A stretch of DNA of 64,000 bases from Botryllus schlosseri (GCA_051294905.1 CM119371.1:9860001-9924000), one strand, 5' to 3'; shown: positions 1 to 30,086, counted from the stretch's first letter. A program made the numbers and translations. The notes: generated by a model from the sequence alone, not told the origin.

Positions 1-410
1 TTGTTGTGCATATATGTCGTGATTTCTGGCCAGGAATCTCACGCCGGGAATCTATTGCTATGCAATACCAACATATCTCAGGAACAATTTAACATAAGCC
101 CAAATTGTGCGTAAGCTTCAAGACATATAAAATATTAACAGATAATTACATTGAAAGTATAGGGATCAATTTACCATACGTTACCATATGCACATAATTC
201 ATGAATGTAGGGAGGCGTTGCAATAGTTTATTATGAAGATTGGTAATTTAACAGAAATTATTCGGTCGCTTTACCAATAATTCGGATCTATGGATTTAAC
301 AAATTGTTAAGAAAAAATTTCCATATTCTGGAAACCCGGCGTAATTTATAACTGCTTTGGCACTGCTTCATTCTGATTCTCGGAAAGAGCATTCCGTCAA
401 GTCCACTTAC

Positions 411-502
411 ATTCATTTTGTAATAGCCTTGGCTTTTAAAGTCATCTTGCAAGCACTCACGAACGTGACCAAACGTCACCTTGTTTTCCCAGTTCGTTTT
501 AC
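411..502 (-). CDS. ITLN: Intelectin-like gene, coding exon 5 (GKTNWENKVTFGHVRECLQDDFKSQGYYKMN); gene continues beyond window start
   Basis: Resembles the intelectin segment GNWxNxxTFGxxxxxxxDDYKNPGYY. Bounded by cag acceptor (503-505) and gtaagt donor; phase-1 start matches the upstream exon. Confidence 0.85.
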
Positions 503-1363
503 CTGGCAACATAGCGAATATAACCTCAAGAGCCTGTTGGAGGTATAGATCTTCAATATGAAATTGAATGGTGTATTCATATTGAAATGTGACCCGAATA
601 TTTGACTGACACTCGTCAGGGCACTCAGTGGTAATTGTCAACAATTATAGTAGAGAGTTTGAAAGAGCATTGTACATCAACATTCGTATCACAATATATG
701 ACCTCACCGGCAAGGAATATTTTATATTCAGGGTGACTAGATTGCCTAATTCAATGTACAATTTTCGATGATACACGGTTACATCGAATAAACTATCAAT
801 ATTTATCACAAATTTTATTCTAAATATCCTGAAATTTTTAATTACGTACCGTTCGCGTTACCGCGGGTTAAGAACGATTCTTTTCGGCGGTATGATATCG
901 AATATTATTGCTAAGTCTCGCAATCACAGTATCAATTCTCGATGATATGCTGCGCCATGCAACTACTAGAAAGACTCGCGATTTCACTATTTTATTGCCG
1001 CCTGACCCACATGTCAAAAAGGTTGCACATGCATGCACTGAACCAAACCAGCTATTTGGTATTACTGCCATTTTCTATTACATTTGGGTACGGGAATTTT
1101 CCGTTTAAATTTTAACAGTCAGTCATTGTAAAATTAAATTACGGGCAACAATATTTACGGAAAAACTTTTTCAACTTCACCTTTCCAAGAGTCGCAAAAC
1201 TGCTGCCAGGACCAGGCCAATATTTTGGTATAGAATATATTTTAACACTGCAAGCATTTTTCCAAGTCTTTCGACTGTACGAACTTCACACTGCAACCTT
1301 CATTATAGCTAGTCAATCGAATAATATGTTTGTACTGCACTGTGCATTCTATTAACCCCGCAC

Positions 1364-1499
1364 CTGTATAATGCGAAGACCTGTCCTTGATGTACGTCGA
1401 CCATCTATCATCGTGGGTACATTTTGCAAGTATGTCACTTTCATGGATACTCGCCACCAGTGTCCAACCACCACCATCTGTTTGCATGTCACAATAGAC
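1364..1499 (-). CDS. ITLN: Intelectin-like gene, coding exon 4 (VYCDMQTDGGGWTLVASIHESDILAKCTHDDRWS...)
   Basis: Fibrinogen-like YCDMxTDGGGWT followed by intelectin-type LVASxHExxxxxKCTxxDRWS. cag acceptor, gtgcgg donor; 136 nt, phase 0->1. Confidence 0.9.
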
Positions 1500-2367
1500 C
1501 TGCACACAAAAACTTATCAGACTGCGTCCCTTTTAATTTAATTGCCCTCTCAAACTCACTAAAGTGGAAAGAATTATTCCGAAACATATGTTATAAATTA
1601 TTTACTCTGTCAAATTTAAAATCGTGCCGTTACGTGTGTTCGTTAACTTAACTCGTCGGGCTATATGGGCTGCATGAACATCAGAGTGAAAACACATTGT
1701 GATTGATTTATTAGCCCAAATACCAAGATATCATTACACCGACATTGCAGCGGCTTATATTTGTGAATCCATATGTTGGCTTCTAAGCATTCGCTAAAAT
1801 ATTGCTGAATTGTTTCATCCTGTGGCGGCCAAACTGGGGCTAATGGATGATTGCACAATTCTCTATCTCGCCAAGAGATACATCCTGATTTTCAAAAAAT
1901 TCTTGCTAAATTTACGTGACTGCACATGGTGTGATTTGATCAATTGAACTATCGAATCGAGTTACGTGCGGCATTGATGACGGACAACGACCTTGATAAA
2001 TTAATCCCGGAGGGGCAAATCACTTTCAACCAAGGGCGGACGATGATTGGTACGAACATTTACAATTGTTTTGTAAAGGTCGTTGAGAAATATTTGAGAA
2101 AAAGAATGCACTGATTTGAAATAAAACGTTGACGACAGAATCACAATCGTGAGAGGTTACATTCATTATCGAAACGTTGATGATATTGGAAAACCTGTAT
2201 GTTTTAGCGGCCGGGCATCGCCTGATGACTGCGAAACTATAGGATGAAATGTCATTACGAAGTTAAAGACGTAAATTTTCCCACCAGTTACCTAACCAAG
2301 TCGAAGTTACGGGGGAATTCGCTTGATCAGTCTGTTGTTTCTGTTATTCATGGTGTTTTTCTACTAC

Positions 2368-2560
2368 AATGATTGTTTACACCAAACCGATATTCTTCAT
2401 TTTGATTCTTTATCTGCCCACATTGAAGACCGCCCACTTGTAATCTCCTTTTAAAAACACCGCTCACGAGGAACAGAGGCCGAGGAGATAGCTAAATAAA
2501 CCTCCTACGCTAATGATGAGATTTTGTAGTAGACCTGGAACCCGTAACCTATTTGTGTGC
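2368..2560 (-). mobile_element. tRNA-derived SINE, degenerate copy
   Basis: Visible similarity to copies at 35742, 41564 and 44288. Confidence 0.55.
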
Positions 2561-2682
2561 AATAAAAGACAATAACACATCGCTATCTTGCTACGGACTA
2601 TGGACAACATTCAGCGAAAAAGGTGACTCAACTACGTATGCTATTTTCCTTGTTTCGGGCCGATACACTGTTGAGTTCTGAC

Positions 2683-3636
2683 TAGGGATGGTGTGAACCT
2701 CTGAAAGGTTCAGGTTCGTGTGAACGTGAACCTTTTTGAAAGGTTCTGTTTGAACACGAACGTGAACCTCATGACGTCACGTGACGTCACATTGCTAATT
2801 TAAACCCCATATTTCAATTAGGTGATTGCCAATATTAATCTACTGTACACGATACCGAGCGACGACTCGGGGCCTCATAATAGCTCAGTACTTAAGTACA
2901 TATTGACGTTTGAAACGTCACCAAATGTATCAACTGGGGCAATCAAATGATATACTAATCCCATAAAATCAGTATCTTGCGTCGCTTTGCCAACAATTTC
3001 GACATGATCGGACAATATATTCGGCGTCTGAGTATTGCCAAATGGATATTCAGCAGAGTGTAAAATGGGTTTCTGTTTCTATACTTGCTACCGATTAACA
3101 AGTTATACAGCAGTATAGCCATCACCCCAGGCGCACGGATTTGGATTTTATGATACAGTATACATATGCAGTCAAGATTGACCCCGTACGCCTGCTAGAT
3201 TTTTACATCAGAAGACGATATCAATATCATTGATTGGTTGAATAAGGATCATATATTGACAAAATACAGTGTATTTCTCTCTTGATGTCATGTGATTCCG
3301 TGTCAAGCTCACAGCACAGAGACACTAAATATGCACAAACGGAAGGCTGGATATTTCGAGCAAACTTTTGTAACAATACAAGTAAATTTTTGAGATTGTC
3401 AAGGGCATGGTCGTTTAGTGTTGAATGTTTTTGCTGCCAGCCCCATGCATAGAGTGGCCCGCAGTTGATAGTCAATAAATTTGAACCAACGATGTTGTAG
3501 TGAAGTGAAAATTGCAATATATGAAAAAGGTTCACAGTACAGAACCTACCAAGGTTCTGTTGTGAACGCGAACCTCAAATTTTCCGAGGTTCACACACAG
3601 AACACGAACGTGAACTTCACGTTCACACCATCCCTA
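2683..3636. mobile_element. hAT-type MITE family A
   Basis: TIR TAGGGATGGTGTGAAC; perfect 8-bp TSD GTTCTGAC; GTGAAC/GTTCAC subterminal repeats; second copy at 33676. Confidence 0.92.
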
Positions 3637-5139
3637 GTTCTGACCAACACACTTGCAGGAAGTATCTCACAGTGCTTTGAAGCCATACCAGCTCTATTTC
3701 AATCACCTATAGCTCCCAGGCAGACCCACAGTGACCACACAACAATATCAATACCTGGTAGATAAATGGTAAGTGAATAAATTCATATTATAAATTTTTA
3801 TTGTTGCGGGTATTAAAAAACTATGTTTGCGATAAGTAGCCAAGACAATTAATAGGTCTGGCTGCTCCGTGTTCGATGAAAAATCAATTTGAGGGCACAT
3901 TTCGTGTTATATGCGATTCAAAAGAAAACAGTGAAACTCAATCTGTCTGTGCAGAATGATGTATAATTGGACATAGGTTGATTCGGTCTCAATTTTACTG
4001 GGAATCAGAATTGGGGAGTGAAGTAACTCAGATGACTGAGTTATGTTTACGGCGGCCTAAATCGAATGTACCTGCTGGATGTGGTCAGCGTTTGGACCAT
4101 CCATGGATATAATACTTTTTGATGTCAGTAATCATGCCGCAAAATGCATCCACGTACTTTCCATTGGATTAAAAACAATTAATCTTGAAAGTCATTGCCA
4201 GACATCATACTATAGTAATAGCGGGTGCAACATTGATATCACGCTCCGATTGATACCTGGTTGGCAGGTCCGCATCTCTCAAAGGTCGGTAATTTCTATG
4301 TTCCAAAAATGAACTAAAATAATTCAAAAATAAGCCGCCATCAAACTCATACGTTCAATTTATATGTTCGTTATAATCATTTGCATTTAATTTTCGTCTC
4401 CGCGACCATCAGGGAGAGGGAAAACGACCCTCTTGGATCGCGGCTCTCAGTTGGAAACCTTTGATATATAGCATATCTGCAGATCCTACTATCGCCTGAA
4501 AGTTGACGTAATTGATGGGAGAGTTCTCCAAGCTCTATAGCAGGGGTTGATAAGTATAGGTCCCGAAGCCTATATATTTGGGTCGTGGCCGCACTAGAGC
4601 GATCTTTTAATATGTATGTAATATTTTCCGAATTTTCGGCAATCAAAAAATTTATTTTCCCATCGCACGATCTTCGAGAGGATACTTTGTTCGTGGCCGT
4701 GTTCATTCATAAGCAGGAAGTGCAGAAAAACGGTCACTTCAATATGGTTTGATCATAAATGTGTGCGGACATTTGTATTGAAATAATTTTTTAATGTCAT
4801 GAGAAGATTTTTCTGACCTTGGCTTCTCTGGAAAGCTGTAACTTGCGTGGATAATACTCGGACATGGAAGAGGTAGATAGGGGCCATAGCTGCGGAACCA
4901 TAAAGTTTTTTTAATGCGCATAAGTTGCAGAAATGATTTTCTCCGTATATTCCTTATTGGAAAAGAACGGTAAATTCCTTATATCGCTTAACACTGTCGT
5001 AGACCATCTGGATGCTTTATTCAAGGGGGGGGGGGAAGGGATATGCTGCGGGTAGATAGGTAGATCATTTATTAAATTCGTCTCACCGGGTAAATTTGAA
5101 ACATTCAAATAATCGGTATGGACAGGAAACGGACGATAC

Positions 5140-5600
5140 GACCGAGTGGTCATCTAGTCAAGCCCTTCCCTAGAGAGCATACAAATTATATCTAACGAGA
5201 CAGACGAACACAACGATAATTTTCAAAAACACAAAAATGGAAGAGATCGGTATAAACGAACAACATACACATAAGAAAGCCATGCTCGAACAGCAATAGC
5301 AACAGTGCATCAATCACAGACCAATAGGTTGATTAGGAGGGTCCAGCAGATAGTCTATCAGTGATTTTTTAAAACCGTTGAAGCTTCGTTCACGAATTGT
5401 AATGGGTATGTTCTTCCAGATGTTAGGACCGGCTAGCAGAAGAGATCGTATTCAGAATTTCTTCTTTACTAAATTTTGGCGGTAATTAGGTGCGGCTGAA
5501 AATCTGGTATTGTGACTATGGGTGGATGTTGATAGTTGTAATTTATCCTCCAAACTAAAAGCAAGCTGTTTATTGTGAAAACGATACATGGATTTAGCTA
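5140..5600 (-). mobile_element. CR1/L2-group LINE 3' fragment
   Basis: Minus translation VAKSMYRFHNKQL...THSHNTR...*IRSLLLAGPNIWKNIPITIRERSFNGFKK resembles the ORF2 C-terminus; contains an internal stop. Confidence 0.7.
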
Positions 5601-6623
5601 CTTAGGTACTTAGCTACTAGGTACGTGAGTATTAGCCACAGGCATGTCTGGGCTGACCCTTTCCGCACCAGGACGCATGAAGACATCAAGTTTATTTGAC
5701 CAACATACGTTTGAGCGAAGAGCGGCGCAAAAAAGATCAGCGGCGATAAAACCATCGCTGGTTGGTCCAAACCCTCGATACTGATATGGCCGATCGTCGA
5801 AATGGTTCTTGCAATCTGAGCCCTGCATCGTACATGTGACCCATCGAGTAGAACAATGCACCCCCATTCGGAAACACCGGCGTCACACATGTTCCATAGA
5901 ACTGTGTTTTGAACAACTTATTGTCTCGACCTTATATATTTCCTACATGCCCGTGAAACCAAGTAACTAACATTAAAATGCATATATTTCGATATGCTAT
6001 GCTTGCCTCGCGAGATGCCAATTAAACTCGCGTTTAGGTCGCAGTGAAAAAAGTTTGAGAACACCACCTTTATAGAATTATATAACAGTGTTTGGATCAC
6101 CAAATGACTTTCGGCTCAAATGTCATTTGGATTTAATTACATTTAATTCAATCCAGAATATATGACAACATAATTTCATTCGAACCTAATATGTCGGCAG
6201 TTGAGAGCATGCCGGTTGGCCGAATATGTTTTGTCTTGCCTGTCGCTGCTGACGGAGTAGAATAGATCAAAACACAAATTGAAATATAATTCTTTAATTT
6301 ACGTATTGGTATCGATGATTTGGTCATTACAATTGCCACGGTCAGGTTCAGAATGATTTGCGAACTAGAACATTTGATGACTTGAACATGACTGACATAC
6401 TACATAAATACTATATATATACACATTCACTTTTCTAAAATGAGTCACACTCGCTGTATGAAACGAGGAGTCAAGTCAAGCTATCAAAAAACGGAACTTG
6501 AGTCATCCAAATATCGAATAATGTTGTCTATTCACGTCTTTCGAATTCGAGGCAGGCTTCGTCGAAAGAGAGGATAACGCTAGAACTCGGTGTCAATATA
6601 CACGCCCATACTATCCTACAAAC

Positions 6624-6741
6624 CTCTCTCAATTCGTTTCTGTCTCCAAGAGCCTCCAATGATTTGATTCCACTGCCTGTGACTCCTCGGTACTTGAGAT
6701 CCAAACATGATTCGAATGTCGACTCGGTCAGCAGCAGTTCA
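6624..6741 (-). CDS. ITLN: Intelectin-like gene, coding exon 3 (ELLLTESTFESCLDLKYRGVTGSGIKSLEALGDRNELRE)
   Basis: Start of the fibrinogen-like domain (SCxDLKxxGxxxSG). aag acceptor, gtttgt donor; phase 2->0 joins exon 2 and the VYCDM exon in frame. Confidence 0.8.
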
Positions 6742-6905
6742 CTTGATTAGATAATGTTACCATCATTTCATGTATTTCAATAAATTTGACATTACATAGT
6801 GTTTCATAGTTTAATCAACTTGCAGTCGTGTATTACAAGCTGGTCTATAGTTCTGGTCAGGCCCTTTCATCGCAGAAAGTTTAGTCTTTGTGGAAGGGTT
6901 TTTCG

Positions 6906-9100
6906 CAGAGGTGGTCAAAGTAGTCAAGAGAAATACTCAAGTAGTAGTAACGACGTGAAAATGTACCTAGGTACGTGTAGAAGTAGTACTTTTAAATGCA
7001 TCCTAATACTTCTTGAAGAAGTATAATTTGACTGACTTAATATCTACTCAAGTAAGTAGATGTGAAAACGGTCGTAATTCGCTCGCGTGAACTGTCAAAA
7101 GCTGCATATTGATCTATGCGGAAGGTGTAGAGAGGTGTAAATGCATCCCAGGATGCATCAATTTTCGATAGATTAAGTATTCGTCCACGTCATGGGATGC
7201 AAATGATATTATCGATATGGAAATCCTTGGTTTTCTCGAACACCCCGTTTAAAAAAATCTCCTCCATATTATAAGGCCCGTAGTTTAGTCGAAAAGCAAT
7301 ATAGAGAAGCGTTATAAGATACGGTGTTAACACTTTTCACGATTAGTATGCGTTAGTAAAAAACTACGCCCGACCGTAAAATTGTCATATGGTGTACTTT
7401 TATTTTCAGAAAATACAGACACTACTACATCTACTTTTATACTTCAACATGTATGTTCTCCAGACAAAAGAACTGAAACTAAGTAGAACTCAAACTAGAT
7501 ACTGGGAATTGATAGAGAAATACAAATACTACTTCTGAACAGCGGAAAATATATTTCATGTCCCTTGTCCAGAATGATTCAATGGTTGTCTGCTAACACA
7601 GGTCTAACGTTTGAAAAAAGTCAGAATTTCCTTTTCCAGATTAGGACACGCCATGGGCTGCTAGATTACGATATTATATAGGTATAATTGCTAGATTGCG
7701 AAACGGTAGTTTCAAACGTCTTGATTGGCCATATTTATTGTAATGAAATATTTCATAGGGGCGACTATCCGGTGTGGACGGTACCACACAGCCCGCTACA
7801 AAAATTATGTTCATCGATACTTCCTTGAAAACAGTGTTGGGATGACTCGAGTCAGACTCGAGTCACCTTTTTCGCATGACTTGACTTGACTCGAGTCACT
7901 ATGCTAAAATGACTTGACTTGACTTGACTCGGCGTATCAGAAATGTGGATTGACTCGTGACTCGGAGCAAAATCCACGAGTCAATTTCAAGTCATCAAGT
8001 TATCGGTGTTGATAAAAATCACTGTATCTTGATTGTTCGTGAAACGCTTGCCTAACCCGTGAGAGCGACTAATCATTCAATGACCGTGCGTTTTACTGAG
8101 CCTCGATTGTTCTCTCACAAATAAATTGACCGCGCACGCAGTGATCGCAGCTTCCTGCTTACGTTGTCGTAACTCTAGTAGTAAAGTAATAGAATAGCAA
8201 AATGTCTATTTCTGTTCTCTGTTCTTACCTTAACCAAACCTCTTGTTTTATTGAAATTAAAGTCGAGTATAGTTTATATAGTCGTCAACCATTGGCGCAG
8301 GCTCGAATGGTATCATATCTATTTGTAAATGGGTAATGTATTGTATCTTATCAATTCCAATTCTCTATTCCCTATTTTTGCTGGTAACTATAAACTGAGG
8401 CTATGCAATTACGTAGTTTAATAGTTCTACGTATATGTGAGCGAAGCAGTGCCTTCTTGCGTGCATATTGAACTCTATATTCGTTCATCGTTTCGGAATC
8501 AATGACTACTCAAACTGTATTTCAGACAGCTAGCAAACTGCAATGACGTGATCATGCCTCATACATACTTCGAAAAGGCAACTTGACTTGAAATGTGACT
8601 TGACTCGTGACTTGACTTGACTTGACTCGACTTGACTCGAGTCACCTTCAAAAATCGAGTGACTTGACTTGACTCGAGTCACCTTTGAAAATCGATTGAC
8701 TTGACTTGACTCGAGTCAAAATGGGCAATGACTCGAAATGACTCGTGACTCGAAGGTAGTGACTTGATCCCAACACTGCTTGAAAACAAATTTGTCACTC
8801 CATATCTACTGTGAGCGAAGCGCGACGAAAATACTGAGCTTCACATAACTTTTATGGAAGGTAAATGTTTGTAGCCTACTCTGTGAAAACAGCCCCGAAA
8901 TTCCTCAGGCTATCTTTCTGATTGGAGGATTAAACTACTTCTCCTTGTCCAACTGAAAATAGCGAAAAGTAAGTATTTCACAAAACATTACGAAGTAAAA
9001 GTAGCGCGAAATAAGATTTACTTGAGTAAGTACCGCAAGTAGCGAACAACTACTACAGTATTTTTAAAAAGTAGAAGTACGTCGTTACTGACCGCCTCTG
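6906..9100. mobile_element. TIR element with AGTAG-rich subtermini hosting a nested MITE
   Basis: TIRs CAGAGGTGGTCA / TGACCGCCTCTG (11/12 match); no clean TSD. Confidence 0.6.
7832..8778. mobile_element. hAT-type MITE family B, copy 1
   Basis: TIR CAGTGTTGGGA; TSD CTTGAAAA; GACTT/GACTCGAGTC subterminal arrays. Confidence 0.93.
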
Positions 9101-9344
9101 TATTTGTCTACTTGACCTAGCACCTAGGTCTGGGGTGGATATAGGTTATGTTCTATTTAGAGGCAGTTTAGGTTCAGTTGATGTGATCAATGTTTAATGT
9201 TTAATTTAAAAGGAAATATTACTCACTCTGACTAACTGTATTTGTATCACTCTAGTAATAAATCAATCCATTCATTTATACCCGGGGTTCACATGCTGTT
9301 ATTAAGATAGAGCCAACGGTAGAAGTAGAAAAGTCCGTATATGG

Positions 9345-10449
9345 TAGGGTTACCAATTTCTGTGACCCGAATTCCGGACACCCTTTAGCGCCCACTAGTG
9401 GATTTCAAAATGAGTTATGACGTCACACCAGTAAGGCTTTGCTCATAGACCAGAGGTGGTCATGATCCGGTTCAGGATTATGTGCCTGTGTGTTGTGTGA
9501 CCGGGACCGAAAGCACATGTTTTCAGCCCCTTCCCGCCCAAATCAACAAAGATTTTGAGCCCATCATAGGGTAATCGATGCAAATTCTGGTTGGGGGCTT
9601 GCTATATGAATCTGGTTTCTATATGCATTATGTCGTTAAATTTTTTGAATCAATTCTGTCAATAATATTGATTGTTCGGTTGTTCCATATATTACTGTAT
9701 AAATAGTTACTACTCTCCGCCCACATGATCAGAGTTGGCGGTAGAACTGGTGGAGGATGATCAGTTCGAAAATACAGGGAGCGTAATTGTACATCGTTAA
9801 GTCATTTTCATGCCCAACCGATAAGATCGTTTATGCCGGTGCGCATCACGGAGCTTTATAAACACCCCACATCCAGTGGTTTCCAATCTCCTATGGTCGC
9901 GACCACGTCTCCAATTTGAAAATGTTCCGTGACCCGGATCAAAATTTGACGAGCTGATTACTAAAAGAAGTCAGCACCTTTTCCCGGATTTACTCACGGG
10001 CTATATTGGAAGCTAATTACATTCAACATGGCAAACGACCCCCACGTTTGAAACCACTATCTTTGAATAAAGCATTTAAACGGCCTTAACGATCTCTAGG
10101 AATATACCGTTCTCCTATAATTGCGATTACAATTAGGCTTATTCCAGTAAATGAAGGTGGTTTTTATTTATATTTTATTGCAGTTTTTGCGATGGTGTGA
10201 TAGTCTTCATATTAAAATCAATAAATGTGAAAGGAAATCGCGCGCAGTGCGAAGAAAAATATCATTCATCAGCAAAAATATTCTTAAAAATAATGTTTTT
10301 ATGTTGATTTACGAAAAAATTATCACCCTACGTCGTCAAATCTTCAAAATTCCGGACATCTGGCATATTTTAGAAATTCCTCCCGGACGCTAGTTTGAAC
10401 CGTGAAATTCCGGACATGTCCGAGAAATTCCGGACGTATGGCAGCACTA
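9345..10449. mobile_element. hAT (Tip100-like) non-autonomous element
   Basis: Ends TAGGGTTACCA / TGGCAGCACTA; perfect TSD GTATATGG; CCGGACA subterminal repeats. Confidence 0.85.
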
Positions 10450-10541
10450 GTATATGGTTATCTCAATTGAAAATTAGTTGATATGGTAAGTATCATTACG
10501 ACTTTGGTCGGTGGTCGTCCTCTGGCTATACTGCTTCTCAC

Positions 10542-10743
10542 CTGCTGTCTCCTCCTGCATTATTATTTCCATTATTAGCCTTTGATGCCAAAGGTATCGT
10601 AACCGCTAGTAGAATTGCAATTGCTAGCAATACGGCGCTCGCTCTCCAAACATTTTTCCAACTTCTCTTTTTTGGCTCTGGTGCAGTTGGTATATCGACA
10701 TTGGCGTACGAATGGTTTATACTTTGCTTCGGGTGTAGGCCAT
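10542..10743 (-). CDS. ITLN: Intelectin-like gene, coding exon 2: cytoplasmic tail, transmembrane helix and stalk (GLHPKQSINHSYANVDIPTAPEPKKRSWKNVWRASAVLLAIAILLAVTIPLASKANNGNNNAGGDS)
   Basis: Open frame between ttttcaaatccag acceptor and gtgaga donor, phase 1->2; basic cluster followed by a ~19-aa hydrophobic run. Confidence 0.7.
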
Positions 10744-11187
10744 CTGGATTTGAAAATGTTTTCAGTTAGAGTGACGCATATTCATTGGTGCCTCACTAGG
10801 TTATTGTTTCTCTGCGCTGTTATTATAGGTAAAAAAGCCGGATTTTCTCTGCCTTGGTGCTTTTGAGGGGTTTTGATGCTCCAACAATATTATTATAAGT
10901 TTTGAGAATCAGTACGGCAGTAGCATTCGATTAATACCAGTTACAGTAAATTTCGAGCTGTTTGTGATGAGTCGGCCGTCTTTGCCTCAACTCTCTTTCA
11001 CACTTTCACTTTCACGTCATACAAAAGTAGCCTATTCTTTGTAAGCTCTCTTGGTGACAATCCACACTTTGAATCGGCAGATGTTTATCGTGTTCTCGTC
11101 CCAGCTGTAGCTTACTTAAAACCCCCATGAATTATAATTTCTGAAATTGATAGCAAGGGAAAGTATCTGATATTGAAAGCGTGTTAC

Positions 11188-11248
11188 CTTTGAGCTCACT
11201 AACCGTTGGTGATGTGATAACCGTAATTTGACTCTTTCTATAGCTCAT
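11188..11248 (-). CDS. ITLN: Intelectin-like gene, coding exon 1 (MSYRKSQITVITSPTVSELK)
   Basis: First ATG after an in-frame stop; gtaaca donor in phase 1 matches the next exon; upstream acceptor at 11366-11368. Confidence 0.6.
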
Positions 11249-12779
11249 ATAGGCGGTGGGGTTGATTAAAGTAATCTGTCAGGAAAACGGCCTCTGAATG
11301 ATAGTTTCCATGGATTCACCAAACTATTGTCTGGTGGGTGCACTTCAACGCATATGTCAGTGTTTCTGGATGAAAGATGTTATAAACTAATCTAAACCCA
11401 TACTCACTTCCCCAAACGCAAGATACCCTATGTTACCCAATAACATACAATTTTCATGGCATATGTAGGAAGAAGCAATTTATCAAGAATAGAGCTAAGT
11501 CGGCAAAAGTACTCACCGCATCTGATATACCCCTAATTCGATCTAGCATATAATGATTTTTGAAGAAAAAAAATGTTAGCCTGTGAATTCAATCTGAAGG
11601 TAAGTGGCACGCAGCTGAGTATCAAACAATATAGGTGGAAAAGTTTGAGAAACACTGCCGTGCATGAATCCATGCGTTTGCATTGAACGGGTTGGCTAAA
11701 TTTGATAAAAGTCGACTTCAAGACATACCATTGAAATATTGAACGTCCTTTTCCGACGACGCGAAATCGGTCGTATGGATAATTTCTCATACAAATAGAA
11801 TTATTTATTGAGTATTTGACGATTACAGAATTCATATCCGTTGCCTGTTCGCCCATAATAATAATCAATTTGATACAGATATTCTCCGGTTATCCATACT
11901 TTTGGATCTTTTTAGTGGCCAGCTTACAAGCCTATTTTGAGTACGCCATTGCCACCCATCAGAGCCGATCATTTCACGGATGTTTAAAATGCCGAGCGAA
12001 GTACTGACGTTGGGAATGTTCTCATCACAGCATAGCCCTACAAGGCAATGACTTCTTTAGGAAACGAGAAGTTTATGGAATTTCATATTTTCATTAATCG
12101 TCGTTTGGTGGAGCCAGTCAATCCTAATTTGTGGTTCTCAAGCTTTACTAACCTATCCAAAACATGTTCGCTAATCCACGAGAATTCGAGGAACCCTAAA
12201 TTTTCACTGAGTCCTTATTCAGAAATCTTACACAGTACACGTTTATCCACGCATCTTATACTATTGTGCTGGTGCGGAAAACACACCGTGCGCATAAGTA
12301 GAGTGGAAAAAGAACAACACTCCTGAAAGAATTTTCACACAAAACTAGAACTTGGAACGCAGGTTAACAACCACTGATCCTGATATGACGGAGTGATAGC
12401 ATTTTAGCGCAGTATAATGCAGGCTAGCTCAGGCTCCATGACGATATTAATATCACAGTACCGAATGTTAATGTGAATTCAGTATCGCACTTACCAGTGC
12501 CGAATGGCCATTATATATGAATTATAACTACGTCACTTTCTGATTTGTAGCATCGTTATTCACATCACTGTTAGAAGTGAAAAGTTATGCATCATATAGT
12601 CACTGTGGAGTCGTCGAACAGGTAGCGCGTGTTCTTGAGGTACTCCCATGAAAATTAGATCTGTAGTCTAGACCAGTGGTTCTCAGCCTTTTTGACCACG
12701 CGGACCGATAAAACTTCAAAACAAATGGTGCGGATCGGTGAATGTTCAAAATCAAAATCAACCCGAAATTCAATTATGA

Positions 12780-13731
12780 CAGTGTTGGGATCAAGTCAGT
12801 ACCTTCTAGTCACGAGCCATTTCGAGTCGTTGCACATTTTGATTCGAGTCAAGTCAAGTCAATGGGTTCACGAAGGTGAATCGAGTCAAGTCAAGTCACT
12901 AGATTTTTAGAGGTGACTCGAGTCAAGTCGAGTCAAGTCAAGTCAAGTCACGAGCCAAGTCACAATTCAAGTCAAGTTGCCTTTTCGAAGTATGAGGCAT
13001 GATTACGTCATTACATTTAACTAGCTGTCTGAAATACAGATTGAGTGGTCATTGATTCTGAACCGATGAACGAATATAGCGTTGAATATACATCGAAGAA
13101 GGCGCTGTATCGCTCACATATACGTAAAACTCAGTTTATAGTTACCAGTCAAATTGGAGAATAGAGAATAGAGAAACGAATTGATAACATGCATAACATT
13201 ATCTGTTTACATATTAATATGATACAATTCATGCCTACGATAAGGGTTGAGGAGTATATAAAACTGTATTCGAATTCGAATTCGATAATTCGATAACAAG
13301 AGGTTTGGCTAAGGTAAGTACAGATAACAGTAATATATATTTTCCATAAATTACTTTACTACTAGTTTAGGACAACGTAAGCTGTAAGTTCCATTCATTT
13401 CTTTTGTGGTCAATTTATTTGTCAGGGTACAACGGAGACTCAGTAAAAAGCACGATCATGGAATGGCTGGTCGCTCTCACGGATTACACCAGCGTTTCGC
13501 GAACAATCCGAACATATGCAATATACAGTAAATTTTATCTGCACCTAGTACTTGATTGACTTGAAATTGACTCGTGGGTATTGTTCCGAGTCACGAGTCA
13601 ATTCACATTTTTGATACACCGAGTCAAGTCAAGTCATTTTAGCAAAGTGACTCGAGTCAAGTCAAGTCATACGAAAATGGTGACTGGAGTATGACTCGAG
13701 TCAAGTCATGACTCGAGTCTTCCCAACACTG
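12780..13731. mobile_element. hAT-type MITE family B, copy 2 (inverted relative to copy 1)
   Basis: Same TIR and body as 7832-8778 in reverse orientation; TSD not retained. Confidence 0.9.
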
Positions 13732-13794
13732 GTGATGCAAATGCATGTAACTCAAATTTAATATTGGGAACTTCTTTTAATGATGCGTGTTTCA

Positions 13795-13884
13795 TATTTA
13801 TACGTGGTGCTATTATAATTACTCCAAGGCGAAGCTCAGGTATTTATACGTGGTGCTATTAAAATTACTACAAGGCGAAGCTCG
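13795..13884 (+). repeat. Two-copy tandem duplication, ~46-bp period
   Basis: tatttatacgtggtgctatta(t/a)aattact(c/a)caaggcgaagctc occurs twice. Confidence 0.85.
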
Positions 13885-14452
13885 AAAAGTCCTGTTGAAG
13901 ACCACTAATTTGATTGTGATTGCTCAGCACCCTTTGAAAGGAACGCGACGTTTGCTATAGCCGGTATTATACTGACACGTGTCGCCTATTGCACTGTCAG
14001 AATTACACGGAGTTTGTTTAAAAGAAGCCGTAGCTTTCACAAATATAGCTTATTCTCAGCGAGTTGTATAGGTTGCTTTAGAACAGTTTCGTACAACACC
14101 TGCACGATTGTGACTTGCGCCTTTAATGGACATCAACTTACTATATAACGACAAAATGCAAAAAAATAGGTTTGAAACTTCTACGTAGTAATTCAAAATT
14201 TGATGTTTTATTTCTCTAATTAGTGGTCAAGCGACTAACTTCTCGCATTTTGGAATTGAGATATGAAATTCTATTTGGCGGACCGGCATGAAACTAGAGC
14301 CACGGACCGGCGGTTCAGAACCACTGGTCTAGACTCTAGAGAAGAGCCCAAATCGCGACGATGGCCGTTGTTGATGTTTGTGATATTTATGCGACTCTCT
14401 CACATTTTTTGGCGTCCGTCCTCGCACTTTCTTGATTAAAATAGCCCTAATT

Positions 14453-14704
14453 TTATTCAAACTTCATCATCTTAATAAGACCGAGCTCTTTCCAGATTTC
14501 AGCGGCTTCCGACACGTAAAACCCTGAACCAATAGTCTATATCTGGAATGTACCGCATGTAACTGCCAAGAATACTCACGTAAAGTGTATGCCTGGCCTG
14601 CACCGCAAAAAGTTTCTTCATACGTAGATTGACCGTTCATGTCTTCGTCGCACTGAACACTAATGATGATGAAAGCGATAGCAATTTATTTTTATAGTCA
14701 TCAT
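14453..14704 (-). pseudogene. Putative small secreted-protein gene (exons 14704-14580 and 14523-14453) with a 1-nt frameshift in an A-run
   Basis: Removing one A gives MMTIKIIAIAFIIISVQC-DEDMNGQSTYEETFCGAGQAYTL|RFYVSEAAEIWKELGLIKMMKFE*; 56-nt gtgagt..ttcag intron is in phase. Confidence 0.4.
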
Positions 14705-16189
14705 GTTTGAAGCCTTTCACAATACATACACACATCATATGTCCCGTAATAACAAACAAATCGTGTTAGAGATGCACAGTGTGGGTGTAGCGCGTGTGGC
14801 AATGATTCATGTAATATGAAGAATGTGTTTGGAATATGCATTAAAAGTTAGTGAATACGTCGGGAAATTTCGAAAATTACCGAAATCGATTTGTTTATCA
14901 AGACATCGCAGAATTACCATTGACTCAACAATGATACACAAACGCATGTGGGTTGTTAAATGGACGCTAACACTTCCGTTTCAAGTTGTGATCTATGTCG
15001 AACTAGGTATTATCATGAATGTATTGTGTCGATTAAACAGCTTTCCTCGTACTCAACGTATAACCGGTCCTTCCGACTTTGTGTGTCATCTCTGTAGTTA
15101 GCTAATATGTGATAGACTCAATAAAAATATGCATGTTACTCTCTGTATCTAATGCATTGTACATCCATTCAGTTTCAACTGGGGATTTGGAAGCCCCCGA
15201 AATCAAACTCTTTACACTCCCGCAGCCACATTCAAATTTATCACTCTAGCTGAAAGTTACTCTTGTCAGTCTTGCGTTACTTTCCTTGTATAGGTTAATT
15301 AATCTCCAACGATTTTCCTTGAAACTGCAAGAAATTCGAAATAAACAATACATATGTAGATCGGAGGTGAACAACGATTTTGTGATGCGGTCCAAATACA
15401 AAAGACCACTATGCCAATGAGGGGCACATGAGTGTGAGCTTTTGACATTTGACATTTTAACGCTTGATTAATGTACAGACGAATACTTGGGCGTGACAAT
15501 AGAAGGAAGATTTCACTATGAGACGAAAACATTCATCGATTACTCACTCGGCGTCAAATATAGTCTCGCCGAACACATATGACAGAATAATGATTAAGTG
15601 GAAAATCGTGAAGGAGTTTCCAAAGCACATTGTGCCTTGACAGTTACTGATCGTATTTTACCAGAGGGGCGCTGACACTAAATTTGGAACAAAGTCTTTA
15701 AGAACTACCAACTTACGCTTTAGCTAGAGTTTTTAGTTTTTCTGTAAATGATTTCAAGTCAGACTGTAAGCTATTAATTTGAACCGTACTTTTTTCATGT
15801 AAAAATAGAAATACGCATAGGACGTTATATACTTTTGTCTTTAATTTTCAGTAGCATATACACTGACTCATGATATCCATACACGCGATATCTGCATATT
15901 CACACCAAGATTGCTGCATGTATGATGTCCATATTCCACTGGTCGAGGAAGAAAGATACGGGGATAACCTTGTACCGTTACCAATCTTGTCCAAACCACC
16001 ATGTTATCCCGGAAATGCCGAGCGTCAAACGGGGAAGTCATTGATACTTGTTTCACTGATGGGTCTTTTATCCGACCTAGTCTGGGACTAAAACTAGCAC
16101 CATGTTGCATGGCTCAGTACTGTTTCTAAATAATAAATGTACTGTTTTATCCTAATGCGTGTGTGCTACATAGTAACACTGTTTACGAT

Positions 16190-18086
16190 CAGGGGTCGGA
16201 AACCTTTTTCGCCCGAAGAGCCATATTGGGTCTATATTTTCCATTGTAACTCCTCCTCCGTCAATCAACTGTTACGTCACAATTGGAAATTCGTAACGTG
16301 ACGGTAACACTAATTCGAAGTCAAATCATGGGATTCGTCGTGTGCGCCATGTTTTCTCTGTAAAAACTAGCACTAATCATGCCTGGTGCCTTTTTTTAGC
16401 ATGCTAAAATTGCGTTACATATTTTAAATTGTGATACAGTGAAAGTCATACGATATTTTTCGAATCCTAAGACAATTAAAACTTGGATATCCACCAGATT
16501 TAGCTAAGAATAAAGGCGTGAATCTGCGATTTACACGCTTATTACAGTGAATGCATGGTGTTGCATGTTGTTACTGATGGGTTTGTAGTCTGGTTGATGA
16601 ATTGTTGAGGTCAAGCTTCATACAAAAGTCGAGACTTTCATCAGTCACACGAGATCGTAGGCTCTCCTTGATGCTAGTTTTAAATACGAGGACCACTGAT
16701 GGCATTCCTATGTGGAAGCAAACAAGGTCACCACAGAAGTACAGATCCAAACTACCGAGTGATACGTCAGTGACGTGGTGTCAGGGGACGCAAATGAGGC
16801 AGTGTCTCACGTGTCATCGGGATGAGCGAAGGAAAATTATGAAATCTTGCACGATTATTGCTACTTTCTATCCATGTTCATGAATTCACAGATTTTGTGT
16901 ATTTTTAGTCTTAAAATCATGCAATTTGCTTATTTATTGTTCGAAAATGAAGTGCGAAAGGAGATGCAGGGCACAGGTGAGGCACATGCATACCAAGCCT
17001 CTCCCGTGATTGCGAAAATCATCGTAACTAGCTGAGAATTAATTAATTAATTAACAAATAATCAATGTAATCGTCGCACTGCATCCAAAAATCTAAATAT
17101 TGATCAACTTCTTAATTCTCAAAGTGTTCGGCGATAAAACATGACTTTGCGCTACACGGCTACATTTCAACGACGGTTAAGCTTAGGGTGGCAATTGGAA
17201 CAAAAATAAATTTAAAACAAACATGTTTAAAAGTATGCCCTGATTTAAAGCATGTTTTTTATTGTGTTTTATTTTGCAATGACGTCACGAATTGGATTGA
17301 CATTGACAATTGAAAATATAGAGTAAATGTAGCTCCTTTGACGAAATATCTGTACTATTAATGTTGAACCGACTTATTTTGTGGATTCCAACCATATCAT
17401 ATCGATATAGGTCGGCTATATCGGCTGGTAATTGTCCGTAGGCTCAAACAACATGTTTTTTTGCAAAGTATGTACAGTGTACACAATTATGGCATAATTT
17501 TACAACTTGAAAAAAAAAATTAAAGCCCTTTCTTTAAAACACTGTTTAAAACGTGTTTTACACGAAGTGTCTTAAAATACCGTTTGTTTTAAATGCAACC
17601 CAAGTTGAGCTATTCATCAATGAAGAAAGTGGATAATTATGGCGTTCTTTATAATTATAATGTATAATTTGGAATGTCACTTTCAATACAGTTCGTTTCC
17701 GCCGTAGATCAAGAAGACAATGCGTATTTCTTCTGCTATTCTCTTTGATCGAACAACGTATCGTGCAATCCACGATTTCGAGCCGCGCGATGTCAGGTGC
17801 ATAATCGAATTTACGAGTGATATTGGTCGAAGGCACGACAGCAACTTACATTTAACGATTATTGGAAGAGGGCTCTGAGACCTAATCCTGGATACGTCAC
17901 TGTCTTTTCCTCTTAAAGACATGTTTCTGCTGCCACGAAAATAATTATTCAGGCCATGCTGCAAATTTACCAACAACTTGCTGCAATATTGATGAATCGG
18001 TAAAAATATAAAAATTTGGCAAAGAGCCATATCTTACACCCGAAAAAGCCATATATGGCTCGCGAACCTAAGGTTCCCGGCCCCTG
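16190..18086 (-). mobile_element. hAT (Charlie/SPIN-like) deletion derivative with transposase C-terminal relic
   Basis: TIR CAGGGGTCGGAAACCTT; GAGCCA subterminal motif; minus 16550-16700 reads IKESLRSRVTDESLDFCMKL..QPDYKPISNNMQHH. Confidence 0.75.
17184..17603. mobile_element. hAT-type MITE family C, nested
   Basis: Ends TAGGGTGGCA / TGCAACCCAA; TSD GTTAAGCT/GTTGAGCT; homologous to 43496-44034. Confidence 0.82.
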
Positions 18087-18291
18087 GTATGAAGAAAGGC
18101 TTGTACGAACAACTGGATAATCAAAATTTGAAAGTAGACCCAGAACCAGAACTAACCACTCTTCAAAATCCGCAACTAGATATCACATTTCAAAGTGCTC
18201 CTATGGAACTATAACTAAAACTACTAACAAAACTCGTAGTTTGTTGTACGTCAACTAACTGGAACGGTAATTTGTACGAGTCGGTATACAG

Positions 18292-19005
18292 TAGGGGTGG
18301 GCAGACCTGCTTTTTGCACCAGCTGCATATCAAAAATCTTAGCAGTAAAAGAGCCACAACACAAAAATTCGAAAATTTATGACGTCACAAGGAAATATAT
18401 GCTTCAAATGTAGTTTATTATAGTGTGTTGATACCGAGCGTCTCCACCTGGGACGCAAAGTGATTGAAACGCGCGGATATGACGTCCAAGCTGTGCGGAG
18501 CAGTTCCTTTAAATGCTGATGAGAATTTAAGGAAGATTTCAGCTCGGTAATCTCGCGACTTATTCTTGGCCAAATTCAGCAGGTATTGCTAGCCTTTACG
18601 ATACAAATGGAAAAGCCGTATTCACCATGCTAGCCCGGAAATTATTGTGACCTTTGGTGGCTTAAATAATTACCAAGTTCATTGTTCAACTTCATGCTTT
18701 ATCATTGATTGATGGCAAGGCAATCATTGCTGCGGGTGAAACGTTCAAGTGAATTCGATTCGAGGCTCTGATTGTAAATTTCTTAAATTTCTTACCCTGT
18801 AGTAGACCTGTCGCATAAATTTTGCAAGTCTTGCGTAAACCACAAGGAAGGACACAACACGAACACAATACGCATATTGTTAAAACGCGATAAATGCATC
18901 AATATATAATTAAGCTCTCTAGCAAAATGGCGAAATGTATGTGCAGTGTGCAATCATTAAAGAGCTGTAATCAAAGGCTAAAAGAGCCGAGGTTTGTCCA
19001 CCCTG
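18292..19005 (-). mobile_element. hAT non-autonomous element with transposase relic
   Basis: Perfect TSD GTATACAG; ends TAGGGGTGGGCAGACC / GGTTTGTCCACCCTG; minus strand reads HQHLKELLRTAWTSYP. Confidence 0.82.
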
Positions 19006-19085
19006 GTATACAGTATCCGTTGAATCGATCGATATCGAAATGCTGTAGGCTAAAATAAAATGTAAAACTAGCATGTGTTTTATAC

Positions 19086-20591
19086 CAGTGGTTCTCAACC
19101 GCCGGTCCGCGACGACATTCCTGCCGGTCCGCCAGGTATATTACAATTACCTTAATTTCAAGAAGCAATTTTGAAGGCTCTCCCATTAGGGCTGTTCAAA
19201 AATAACTTTTATTTTCTGGGTTCCAGCCATTCACTGACCTGCGGAGTCTTATAGTTGTTAGGACATGACCAACTTTGGTGTGCAGCGTTTTTTATGGTCA
19301 CCTGACAATTTAATTAGTGAATGATGTAAGTTATTTTTGAACAGCCCTGTCGCCCATTGATAAAATGAATAAAACATCAAATTTTAAAATGATTCAGAAC
19401 TTCGTGAGGTAACATTAGGGTTGGAAACGTGTTCGATTTGGCTTGAAGTTCAAGACGTGTGATTTGACGACATGCGAGCGACAAGTAGGCTACAGAACAG
19501 ATATGAGCTAAGCAGCGCAGTTTGCGCGATCATTCATTTTCAGTTCATTCATTTTGTATAGGACCGTAACTGGGGCACTCCAAACCACCCAATTGGAGAG
19601 GGGCCGAGCTTGAAAAGAGCCAAAATTATTTTGCAAATAAAACATGGATAACAGTGTATTCTTTTGAAACTTTTTCCAACATTTTTCAATTTCTTTTCGC
19701 CCTTCGCGCGATTTAGTGTCGCTAAATGTCTTGCTTATTAGGTGCCCTTCTCCGGGAAATATACGCATTATTTATGGAAATAGCTATTCGGCGTCGGCCG
19801 TTACCGCGCCATGACTTACCAACACATAATCAAGTTTAGGCTGACATGGGACTCTGAAAGGTGTGCCACAAATACGGCAGTGAGAAAACCGATTCAGTCA
19901 TGAATGACCAAAAATTTTCGCTATTGGCGCGATTAAGCTCCATAAACTCTGCTTACACCGAGCAGAATGAATGTGCTAACAAGTACAGGTGAAAATAGCC
20001 ACCCAACTGTAGGATCTGGAAATGAAATCCCCGGGAGTTTGGCTTATCGCCCTGTGGTGGCCCAAGACCAACGTTTTTAGGGGTTGGCTTACGAAGTGAT
20101 TGTTCGGCCCGTATTTGCGGATTGCCGGTACTCGCCGCATTGCATTCGTAGTTGCCAGACTAGCTTATGTGTCAGGTGGCAGTTAGGAATGAGCAAGGTA
20201 GCACGACAAGGTGCTTGGTTCGACTCCGTAACGCTTCTTCTCTCGATATTGTTAAAGAGAAGAATATTATTCGAGTTTGCGTGGTCGGTTAAGCCCGCGG
20301 CCTTCGGCTCGAAAACTGTAAAAGACTCTCTGCGGTAGCACGTTTATTTGGACAAGGCAATTTTACCTCGACCCAGCAGACTAGCTACCATAAAATCACA
20401 TGGATGCCGTCATAAAGATAGTTAATTGCGATCAAAACCCTATAAATCTCACTCTCCAGCACCATATAATTTCACAAAACGGTTGCATACTTTACATTTT
20501 GGCTTCATTTCAATTGTGAAAGTTCACCGGTCCGCCAGAAATTTTTTAAAATTTTACCGGTCCGCGAGGTGAAAAAGGTTGAGAACCACTA
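19086..20591. mobile_element. hAT-Charlie-like element
   Basis: TIR CAGTGGTTCTCAACC; TSD TTTTATAC/TTTTATGC; CCGGTCCGC subterminal repeats. Confidence 0.85.
19187..19349. mobile_element. 163-bp MITE, nested
   Basis: TIR (T/C)AGGGCTGTTCAAAAATAACTT; TSD TCTCCCAT/TCGCCCAT. Confidence 0.85.
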
Positions 20592-20788
20592 TTTTATGCC
20601 ATCAGTTCTCATTATTGCAATATACCGCATCAGCAATTCATTTATTACGAAACAGTAAGGTATTCCAAAACGCGTTGTCAACCTTGAAACATGAGTATGT
20701 GCTCCATGACACAATTTTTTTTAATCTCAACTATCTTCGATTTTCGTAATCTTCAGGACGACTTTCGTTCTCTTCTCTCAGTCCTTCG

Positions 20789-21165
20789 TCAAGCTCGCCC
20801 TCTCTCCCATGCGTCCCTATCGTGGTCTCTACTGCCGACTTGTAGCACGGCTCGCTTTCCGTCTGGGCTTTTCAATGCACTACGGCAGTAGTGAGATCGG
20901 CGATGATGAGCCCAAACAAACCTCCGACCCATATAGAAGATGTTCATAACCGGTATTCGAATCCACTTCCATCGGTGTAGTGATCTTCCAGGTAGGTATT
21001 ATAGCTCAACCATAGTGCCCGAATTCAGTTAAGTCGACTGTATGCATTCTTCCATTACTTATTTTGAAAACGTAGAATAGCTGGGTCGGCCACTGCGTTG
21101 GCAACTATCACCAGGGATAGCACCGCGACGTTGGCGAGAACCAAATAAATTCGCACCGATGCCAA
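20789..21165 (-). pseudogene. Secreted prepropeptide paralog 2 (signal exon 21165-21059; exon 2 from 20984 or 20879 to stop at 20789); TTG occupies the start-codon position
   Basis: Signal exon (L)ASVRIYLVLANVAVLSLVIVANAVADPAILRFQN is homologous to 38541-38438; phase-2 intron; exon 2 contains SPDGKRAVLQV; minus-strand AATAAA at 20641-20646. Confidence 0.55.
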
Positions 21166-21871
21166 TTTATCGCAACATGTATATCAGCATCATTTCACAA
21201 AAGTGTGCGTATTACAATCTCCTGCGACATTTCAGAATGTGTGTTATTCCAGCATCGCCCGTCTACTATTTTTTGAAGAGTTATAGCTGTGGCTCATACA
21301 CCGTTTCAGTGTGCCGTCGACAAGAGCAGATTAGATGATTAAAAAAAAGAAAATATATTTTATTATGACGGTGAAATTGTCAGAGATCGGTATCCTTTGC
21401 TAATTAATTTACTTGGGCCGACTAAAAAAGGACATCATTCACTCCTTTTTACTAGAATATTGGTCCATTAAAAAGGCAGATTACGAAAACACGGTAGTCA
21501 ATACCATCAGTTTCACACACTGGTTTTAAGTGTCAGGCAACGCTGTTTACCCTTTCGAAATGGCGCCCCTAATAAATGTTTTAATGCACCCTGGGGGCAC
21601 CGTGCACACTGGTTGAAGTCAGCTGTCCTATTGGCGTCACAAACAAAAGTACAACAGACATCTGTGTAATCACTGTAATGAATTTTAACTGCTTAATAAT
21701 GATATATAATCTGTTGCGCGGACGTCATGTTTATGGCAATACTTGCAGATTTGGAAGTCTCTGTTTTATCGCAGCGCAATATCACTACTAGCGCCACGTA
21801 AAGAAGCCTTACCGTGTATCATACTAACATATATTTTCATCCGAGGTGCCAGCAATTGATATGCTCTAAGG

Positions 21872-22230
21872 CAGTGGTTCCCAACCTTTTCCCTCCCATC
21901 GCCCCCTTTTCAAGGTCAACACCGATCATCGCCCCCCAAATTTTGTGTACCGAAAATTGGGCATACAAACTGTAATCACCGGCGGGTTGACTAAAAAAAA
22001 GGTCAAATTTTCGGCTCGATGTCTATTTTTACACACTTTTGTAACTAAATTTCCGTGGGTTGACTAAAAAAAAAAAGTCAGCCGTTTTAACGCGTCATCG
22101 CCCCCTTCGCTATTTTCGCCCCCGTCGCCCCCTTTGTCCATTTCCGCTCCCCTGTCGCCCCCTTCGTCATTTTCGCCCCCCCCCTAAACCGCTCCCTGGG
22201 GGGCGATATCGCCCCCGTTGGGAACCACTG
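21872..22230. mobile_element. hAT MITE with TCGCCCCC repeats
   Basis: TIR CAGTGGTTCCCAAC; TSD CTCTAAGG/CTCTAGGG. Confidence 0.88.
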
Positions 22231-22766
22231 CTCTAGGGTGAAAGTGTCGACATACCACGTCTTTTAATTTGTTCAGCTACCTATTTATTAGCCACTTGGT
22301 GACGCTGCGGTTCAGAAGAAGTGAAGACAGACTAAACTGGAGCTTCTGCACTTCGATGTGAAAGTCGTCAAGAGGTGCTTAAATATGGCTCAGTTCCAAC
22401 TGAACGCATTGGTGCGACACGATGGAGAGTGCAATGTGTTACTTGTATGCTGCGATTGTCGGTACTCATGGTAGTTTCATGATAGAGCGCGATTTTGATG
22501 GGCTGCTAGTGTCTTGACTAGAATAACATTTCCGGAGTCAGAGTGACAGTAGCGTTCTTCTGTCACCAATTTCAATAAGTTAACAGCTCGGGTCGCAGTT
22601 AGCAGCAACTTCAGGCATTTAGTTATATCCTCGTACATACTTGAGGCGTCAAATTACTATATGCCTTGCAATATGTTGGTTTCATTCTCCCTCACAAACA
22701 ACATTACACACCATAAAAATATATTGGGGAACATGCTCATGCTGACATACGTATACGGGGACACAC

Positions 22767-23742: not shown

Positions 23743-23841
23743 GGACACACAACGTAGCGATCGTAGTATCAGTTCTATTTATGATATATTTCGAGTAAGG
23801 ACCGACTCGCTGTCACCGAAACACTCAGTCAGCCATGTTCC

Positions 23842-24470: not shown

Positions 24471-24481
24471 GTGTTCTAGAT

Positions 24482-25762: not shown

Positions 25763-25996
25763 TTCCAGATATAGACTGTTTTTGACCAGGGGTCTACATA
25801 TCGCATTGATATACGGAGCACCAATTCAGGGGATGAGCGCATCTATTACCTAACATTATTTTACATAGTGATAGAAAATTGAATCTTTTTGGGTACAATG
25901 CTTGGCAAAGAATGTTTTCTTCGCACGATCTCGTGTCAATGCACTTATAGCTTTTGATATAGGTACCACCACAAGTTGTGTTGAAAATTACTAGAG

Positions 25997-29792: not shown

Positions 29793-29825
29793 TAATCATC
29801 ATTATCGCCAATGTACCAAAAGCCT

Positions 29826-30086
29826 GGTGGAGAGGTAGTGTAGTGTAACCCACACCTGCAACACCAATGGGTTGCAGGTCCGAGTCGGACCCAGGTCGGT
29901 TCCAGAATTTCTACCGAATTGTTATGGGTTTATCTAGGCTTCTGCCCGTCATGTCGTCTTATAAAAAGCATAGAAAATGGCCGTGCTACCAGTCGGTAAA
30001 TAGCGAATCAAATACACAGAATATCGGCCGGGTGTAAAATGACATATGTAGTGCAAACATCATGGATATCATAAACAAACATACCA
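29826..30086 (+). mobile_element. tRNA-derived SINE
   Basis: TGCAACACCAATGG core; degenerate B box GGTCCGAGTC; ACAA/CATA tail. Confidence 0.65.

Follow-up and report, generated by a model that had tools for sequence, protein, structure and literature searches.

A candidate type II signal anchor ahead of an intelectin-type head in a partially visible Botryllus schlosseri gene

Intelectins are known as secreted mucosal lectins, and how they inform cells is unclear. Intelectins are described as secreted (PMC12800186), human intelectin-1 is stated to have neither a transmembrane domain nor a glycosylphosphatidylinositol (GPI) site, its receptor being unidentified (PMC5412447), and most of the placozoan intelectins are reported to have signal peptides (PMC6321704). 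A lectin head of the wider fibrinogen-related kind that does sit in a membrane is that of FIBCD1, characterized as an endocytic receptor, tetrameric and of type II transmembrane topology, whose fibrinogen-related head binds chitin and acetyl groups (PMC9994688). No description of a transmembrane intelectin was found in the full-text literature searched, the coverage of which excludes most subscription journals. The subject here is a 64,000-nucleotide (nt) stretch of the Botryllus schlosseri genome (GCA_051294905.1, CM119371.1:9860001-9924000; the whole stretch is referred to as “the window”, with positions counted from its first letter), the beginning of which holds, on the minus strand, the 5′ part of an intelectin-type gene whose second exon encodes a long hydrophobic segment. 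This segment is read here, with confidence that we would put at about even, as an uncleaved type II signal anchor that would hold the intelectin head some 25 residues outside the membrane. If that is true, a natively membrane-anchored intelectin would offer a ready-made case of such a head serving as a receptor.

Five minus-strand exons, all with an AG acceptor and a GT donor and with end phases of 1, 2, 0, 1 and 0, can be joined within the window into an open frame of 203 codons (Table 1), and the gene extends beyond window position 1, leaving about 115 residues of the lectin head visible. A preliminary description of this stretch, made from the sequence alone, had claimed these five exons with phases of 1, 2, 0 and 1, a basic cluster followed by a hydrophobic segment of helix length (about 19 residues), and an intelectin head; the exons lie in the sequence as described, the cluster and the segment are present as claimed, and the head is borne out by tunicate intelectin matches and by structure matches at E-values of about 1e-12. 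Leaving aside the unproven exon 1, the underlying observation is real, and to that extent partly confirmed. Extending exon 3 to a GT further downstream was ruled out, the modelled donor being the one that keeps the family spacing between the S-C of exon 3 and VYCDM (27 residues, the same as in a Clavelina protein), and so was an exon 6 within positions 1-410, where tblastn gave no match and a weak resemblance seen by eye has the wrong phase. With five tunicate intelectins as queries, tblastn detected no second intelectin copy in the window.

Judging by their sequence, exons 4 and 5 clearly encode an intelectin-type (X-type lectin) head. The protein search with exon 4 returned 21 matches, the named ones among which were Ciona intestinalis and Clavelina lepadiformis intelectins, or proteins with a fibrinogen C-terminal domain, sharing 59-67% identity (67% for Ciona intelectin-1b). 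Among PDB structures, exon 4 matched Xenopus XEEL (1e-12), lamprey serum lectin (2e-12) and human intelectin-1 (6.7e-12) over 35-39 residues, whereas the matches to fibrinogen, FIBCD1 and techylectin structures covered only its first 15-21 residues at E-values of about 1e-3; for exon 5, all four PDB matches were to intelectin-family chains, colinear and with E-values of 0.005-0.012 (0.005 for human intelectin-1). The fibrinogen-like N-terminal subdomain is present (YCDM..GGGWTLVAS(V/I)HE, then C..DRWS), as is, in exon 5, the intelectin-specific segment NW.N..TFG....DDYK..GYY. In the Pfam search, Fibrinogen_C reached 20.6 bits on the 48-residue piece encoded by exon 4, just below the 22-bit cut-off, and exons 1-3 and 5 hit no meaningful family.

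What makes this gene unusual is exon 2, the frame of which is open for 75 codons, with a stop seven codons before the acceptor and another directly after the donor; that donor (CAG/GTGAGA) is the strongest among the five exons according to a crude donor score based on consensus weights. In order, the exon encodes 23 tail residues that include Y-A-N-V, the basic cluster KKRSWKNVWR, the 19-residue hydrophobic segment, S-K-A-N-N and a linker rich in Asn and Gly. An in-frame Met is lacking, and whichever exon provides one, the hydrophobic segment comes after 33 residues or more. The charge distribution is biased, with five Lys/Arg in the ten residues before the segment against one Lys and one Asp in the 14 residues after it, so that two features of type II signal anchors, an internal segment of transmembrane length and a more basic N-terminal flank, are both present. 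In a comparison with six tunicate intelectins, each represented by the best 19-mer among its first 40 residues, the exon 2 segment had a Kyte-Doolittle mean of 2.56 versus 1.48-2.35 in the six tunicate signals, a sum on the Hessa scale of -0.92 (the sole negative one) versus +0.22 to +5.03, and a longest uncharged run of 20 residues versus 8-17. Across all six frames of the 64-kb window, 19-mers with a Kyte-Doolittle mean of at least 2.5 occur in seven open frames, three of which are simple repeats, and the frame of exon 2 is the longest of the seven. A short N-terminal signal peptide was seen in each of the six tunicate intelectins inspected, whereas here there is no Met within 33 residues before the segment. 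Other exons that might take over this role were also looked for: among 183 ATG-to-GT exons scanned in 6742-30000, none within intron 2 was a signal-peptide-like first exon of phase 2, and two distinct, weak candidates lie further upstream, which is why exon 2 is the only credible exon within reach for targeting to the endoplasmic reticulum (ER).

A second copy of this exon exists outside of the window. Exon 2, used as a query against 1.84 billion representatives, found two matches, one of which is true: P0027 (E 7.5e-22), a 66-residue open reading frame on a 1104-nt Logan contig that aligns to exon 2 without gaps at 72% identity. P0027 ends just beyond the donor, as the read-through of the window does, and it is therefore a genomic exon and not complementary DNA. 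The second match (P0028, a 1287-residue repetitive protein) was treated as a spurious hydrophobic match. As for further relatives, none of the 156 candidates passed in the “longer” word-index search and the “near” one gave only P0027, a metagenome scan yielded 600 pattern matches with no relatives among them, and the best ESM Atlas score for exon 2 (0.78) was below the useful level. The differences between the two copies are distributed unevenly: two fall within the 34 residues of the basic cluster, the segment and S-K-A-N, versus 16 within the 31 flanking residues (Fisher p = 5e-5, for a core that was chosen after the alignment had been viewed). The cluster KKRSWKNVWR is identical in P0027, while the Tyr of Y-A-N-V is a His there. 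The preliminary description had proposed looking for orthologues retaining both the transmembrane segment and the Y-x-N motif; the sole known second copy keeps the former and lacks the tyrosine of the latter. Disposable signal peptides, for their part, usually drift in sequence. Both copies also have an N-x-S/T sequon at the same tail position (N-H-S at 10709-10717; N-Q-T at residues 8-10 of P0027), two of the three residues of which differ between the copies; it would be odd for a cytosolic tail and, there being two sequences, may be due to chance.

Positions 1-20000 were compared with three bulk RNA runs bearing the same species label (X9, X11 and X13; 6-13% of each, about 4.5 billion letters in all) and with one indexed run (X1); the indexed runs containing the stretch, six in number, do so in small shares (0.05-0.16), and none of them is recorded as RNA. 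The gene is expressed and exon 4 is spliced to exon 5 in RNA, as six reads of X13 cross this joint (placed at 500 to 1362, which becomes 502/1364 when the cut is shifted by two letters), with none doing so in X9 or X11; a joint between exons 3 and 4 is absent among the joints listed. The joint between exons 2 and 3 is met in a single 252-nt contig of X1, which covers 6558-6743 with eight mismatches, continues with about eight unplaced letters and resumes at 10552-10609. The eight spare letters are the exact number that a 10542/6741 join calls for, the last two letters of the exon being identical to the last two of the intron. X1 itself is probably low-coverage DNA and not RNA, since its mean record is 127 nt and its depth of about 4 is equal over exon, intron and intergenic pieces, and the contig, which reaches into intron 3, is therefore not clean mRNA. 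Whether it represents partly spliced RNA or a genomic copy lacking intron 2, so precise a join of exon 2 to exon 3 argues for the two belonging to one coding unit. The letters of X13 are split about 187 to 120 between the bins 6004-6670 and 6671-7337, and this split, along with the X1 contig, suggests that sequences over exon 3 read on into intron 3, unspliced at the weak donor GAG/GTTTGT. No read or contig in any of the four runs compared joins exon 1 to exon 2, and the bin 10673-11339, comprising exon 1 and the first 71 nt of exon 2, holds no reads from the three RNA runs. Thus, of the junctions that had been proposed for checking, 10542/6741 has the one X1 contig to its name, while 11188/10743 has neither a read nor a contig. 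Taken together, a frame lying open between splice signals, the best donor of the set, the X1 join and a frame kept in P0027 argue, at the sequence level, that exon 2 is a real coding exon.

Candidate exon 1 is a different matter: its phase fits, no read supports it, and it is undistinguished from chance, ranking 16th among the 396 ATG-to-GT candidates of phase 1 in 10744-30000 on the same crude donor score. A strong acceptor-like TTTTCCTGACAG at 11276/11275, 27 nt before its ATG, would suit a spliced-leader acceptor or one in a 5′ untranslated region; tunicates trans-splice. An ATG is also present at the very first base of exon 2 (10741-10743), where it opens an out-of-frame reading of nine codons including the stop, with the deletion of 5 nt restoring the register, and the M that opens P0027 is placed one codon later, at what is a Leu codon in the window. 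The window copy may be one whose ancestral start is lost or one that relies on an exon further upstream, and the M of P0027 may be the gene caller's reading of GTG or TTG. Of the tail of about 50 residues with no further Met that had been described, the joined frame bears out that M1 is the sole Met before the hydrophobic segment, but exon 1, and hence a tail of that length, is unsupported.

The explanation we favour is that the window contains the 5′ half of an expressed tunicate-like intelectin gene, in which the internal, transmembrane-length segment of exon 2 would target the head to the ER. Preceded by a tail of no fewer than 33 residues and by a cluster with five Lys/Arg, the segment would be kept uncleaved as a signal anchor whose N-terminal side is cytosolic. 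On the outer side would then lie the linker (about 25 residues) and the intelectin head, making the product a lectin tethered at the cell surface or on endomembranes that might bind glycans, microbial or other, at the membrane and could internalize them. An anchor is favoured because of the length of the segment, the positive-inside bias, the long region preceding it and the conservation of the segment. In the asialoglycoprotein receptor H1, the N-terminal domain is said, in work attributed to Schmid and Spiess (1988), to keep the anchor uncleaved, its removal reportedly allowing cleavage. Going beyond this single gene, it could be supposed that some tunicates made a secreted intelectin into a cell-surface type II X-type lectin receptor, an independent counterpart of FIBCD1 capturing microbial glycans in the gut or on blood cells for uptake, with the basic cluster and the transmembrane helix tightly constrained; this wider scenario is put forward tentatively, and we would not call it probable.

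Several observations weigh against the anchored-lectin reading. The end of the segment, T-I-P-L-A-S-K-A/N-N, conforms to a site for signal peptidase, the residues at -3 and -1 being small, as the rule requires, and a Pro standing at -6; exon 2 has one homologue only, P0027, which comes without a joined head; and the evidence for the exon 2/3 joint is one contig of a run that is probably DNA, extending 66 nt into intron 3. As for the start codon, exon 2 has no in-frame Met and exon 1 is one of many possible first exons, and the empty bin at 10673-11339 would have been expected to hold about three reads under uniform coverage, given the six of X13 on exons 4-5, which is mildly negative. The visible head, moreover, is incomplete, the window not including the C-terminal half, where the calcium and ligand residues are located; it is in this half of intelectins that Wesener et al. 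are said to have placed, in 2015, the calcium sites and the site for exocyclic 1,2-diol ligands.

The cleavage-like end of the segment also underlies another reading of exon 2, namely that the gene encodes a secreted intelectin whose unusually long signal peptide is cut after S-K-A, releasing a soluble lectin with the Asn/Gly-rich linker at its start and leaving the tail as a long n-region. Long signal peptides with separate n-region functions exist. The six tunicate relatives inspected all have cleavable-looking N-terminal signals, and all characterized intelectins are described as secreted (PMC12800186, PMC5412447). Set against this are the uncharged run of 20 residues, the most hydrophobic of the set compared, the at least 33 residues before it, and the near-invariance of segment and basic cluster between two copies whose flanks differ, all of which leaves a cleaved signal, in our estimation, rather unlikely. 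Less credence still is given to the 5′ part being modelled wrongly or belonging to a decaying copy, in which case exon 2 would be untranslated as modelled, or exon 1 would be wrong, with the start lost or located in an upstream exon. The out-of-frame ATG at 10743, the M with which P0027 starts at the window's Leu codon, the undistinguished exon 1, the lack of RNA reads over it and over the 5′ part of exon 2, and the very low expression (the six junction reads from all of the letters sampled) would all suit such a case. It would, however, have to accommodate a 75-codon open frame with intact splice signals in exon 2 and intact exons 3-5 with exon 4/5 splicing in RNA, and the M of P0027 loses its force if called from GTG or TTG; we consider this quite improbable.

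The preliminary description had gone further and proposed a membrane-bound receptor signalling through its own tail. The membrane-bound part is a reasonable reading in view of the intelectin head, the internal anchor-like segment and the lack of a short signal peptide, while signalling by the tail itself is unsupported. Such signalling, a special case of the anchored lectin, would proceed through phosphorylation of the tail tyrosine and binding of the Grb2 SH2 domain at pY-x-N; Y-A-N-V does lie at 10708-10697, in the presumed cytoplasmic tail, and a type II layout is a plausible one. Conservation of the motif, however, is lacking, the Tyr being a His in P0027, the sole relative found; one Y-x-N in a tail with two tyrosines would be expected by chance in about one in ten cases (an estimate), and Y-A-N-V fits the Y-x-x-hydrophobic endocytosis motif equally well. 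In addition, no kinase-docking pattern or pattern of the immunoreceptor tyrosine-based activation (ITAM) or inhibition (ITIM) type is present, and the extent of the tail hangs on the unsupported exon 1. Grb2-type signalling thus seems very improbable indeed, and this part of the description is not upheld.

Table 1. Features of the intelectin-type gene in the window (positions on the given strand, numbered from the first letter of the window).
Feature	Position	Strand	Remarks
Candidate exon 1	11188..11248	-	61 nt; ATG at 11248; donor AAG/GTAACA; end phase 1
Exon 2	10542..10743	-	202 nt; tail, basic cluster, hydrophobic segment and short Asn/Gly-rich linker
Y-A-N-V motif	10697..10708	-	In the presumed cytoplasmic tail; fits Y-x-N and Y-x-x-hydrophobic
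Basic cluster KKRSWKNVWR	10643..10672	-	Adjoins the hydrophobic segment on its N-terminal side
Hydrophobic segment, candidate type II signal anchor	10586..10642	-	19 residues, in a stretch of 20 free of charged residues and of N/Q/H
Exon 3	6624..6741	-	118 nt; fibrinogen-like/intelectin head begins; conserved S-C, 27 residues before VYCDM
Exon 4	1364..1499	-	136 nt; intelectin core motif (VYCDM..GGGWTLVASIHE..)
Exon 5	411..502	-	92 nt; intelectin-specific segment (..NW.N..TFG....DD.K..GYY..)

The window as a whole is eukaryotic in character, with about 39% G+C, introns and many high-copy repeats, two of which lie within this gene. Intron 3 contains an element of about 958 bp (2681-3638) with perfect 18-nt terminal inverted repeats, over which the X1 word depth runs to thousands. 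Many reads stop at 2683 and 3638, and the appearance is that of a non-autonomous DNA transposon present in high copy. Intron 2 holds a second high-copy element (about 7835-8780), which is rich in short GAGTCAAGTCA-like repeats, has inverted copies of CAGTGTTGGGAT as its ends, and shows, in each of the three RNA runs, an accumulation of loose read ends at 8778/8780. The longest open frame of the window (290 codons, 23940-24812, minus strand) has no Pfam match, and its C-terminal part resembles, by eye, the tail of a retroelement protein.

Compared with the secreted intelectins (ITLN1, 4wmq; XEEL, 4wmo; lamprey serum lectin, 7e1e; Ciona intelectin-1b; Clavelina intelectin-1-like), the protein proposed here is colinear over the core encoded by exons 4-5 (..YCDM..GGGWTLVASIHE..DRWS..), with Ciona intestinalis intelectin-1b sharing 63-67% identity over 45-49 residues. 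Where those proteins have a short N-terminal signal peptide, however, in this one no fewer than 33 residues, together with a basic cluster, come before a longer and more hydrophobic segment. Between the segment and the head there are no cysteines and, unlike in the Clavelina proteins, no collagen-like repeats. In Clavelina lepadiformis, three intelectins (P0017, P0019 and P0022) have collagen-like G-x-y repeats that follow the signal peptide and lead up to the head, i.e., a ficolin-like layout with an intelectin head.

Likeness to type II C-type lectin receptors had also been suggested, and the proposed layout is similar in that these (the asialoglycoprotein receptor, Dectin-1 and CLEC-2), too, have a tail, a signal anchor, a C-terminal lectin head and tyrosine-based tail motifs, which in those receptors serve uptake or signalling. 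Their lectin fold, however, has no relation to the present one, neither a hemITAM nor an ITIM pattern is seen here, and the tyrosine is changed in P0027. By analogy, FIBCD1, being type II with a fibrinogen-type head, is the closest known architecture and a better comparison than those receptors: what is proposed here likewise consists of a cytoplasmic tail that is short, one type II anchor and, outside the cell, a lectin head of the fibrinogen superfamily, and the present protein probably works similarly in capturing glycans at the cell surface. FIBCD1 has a coiled coil and a polycationic region, whereas the linker of about 25 residues has neither in evidence, and the FIBCD1 structure (4m7f) matches over 16 residues at an E-value of 0.0015, versus 1e-12 for intelectins; the head is not of the FIBCD1 type, and the protein, by its sequence, is not a FIBCD1 orthologue. 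If the anchored intelectin is real, the layout of a type II lectin receptor would thus have arisen on a third fold, besides those of the C-type lectins and FIBCD1.

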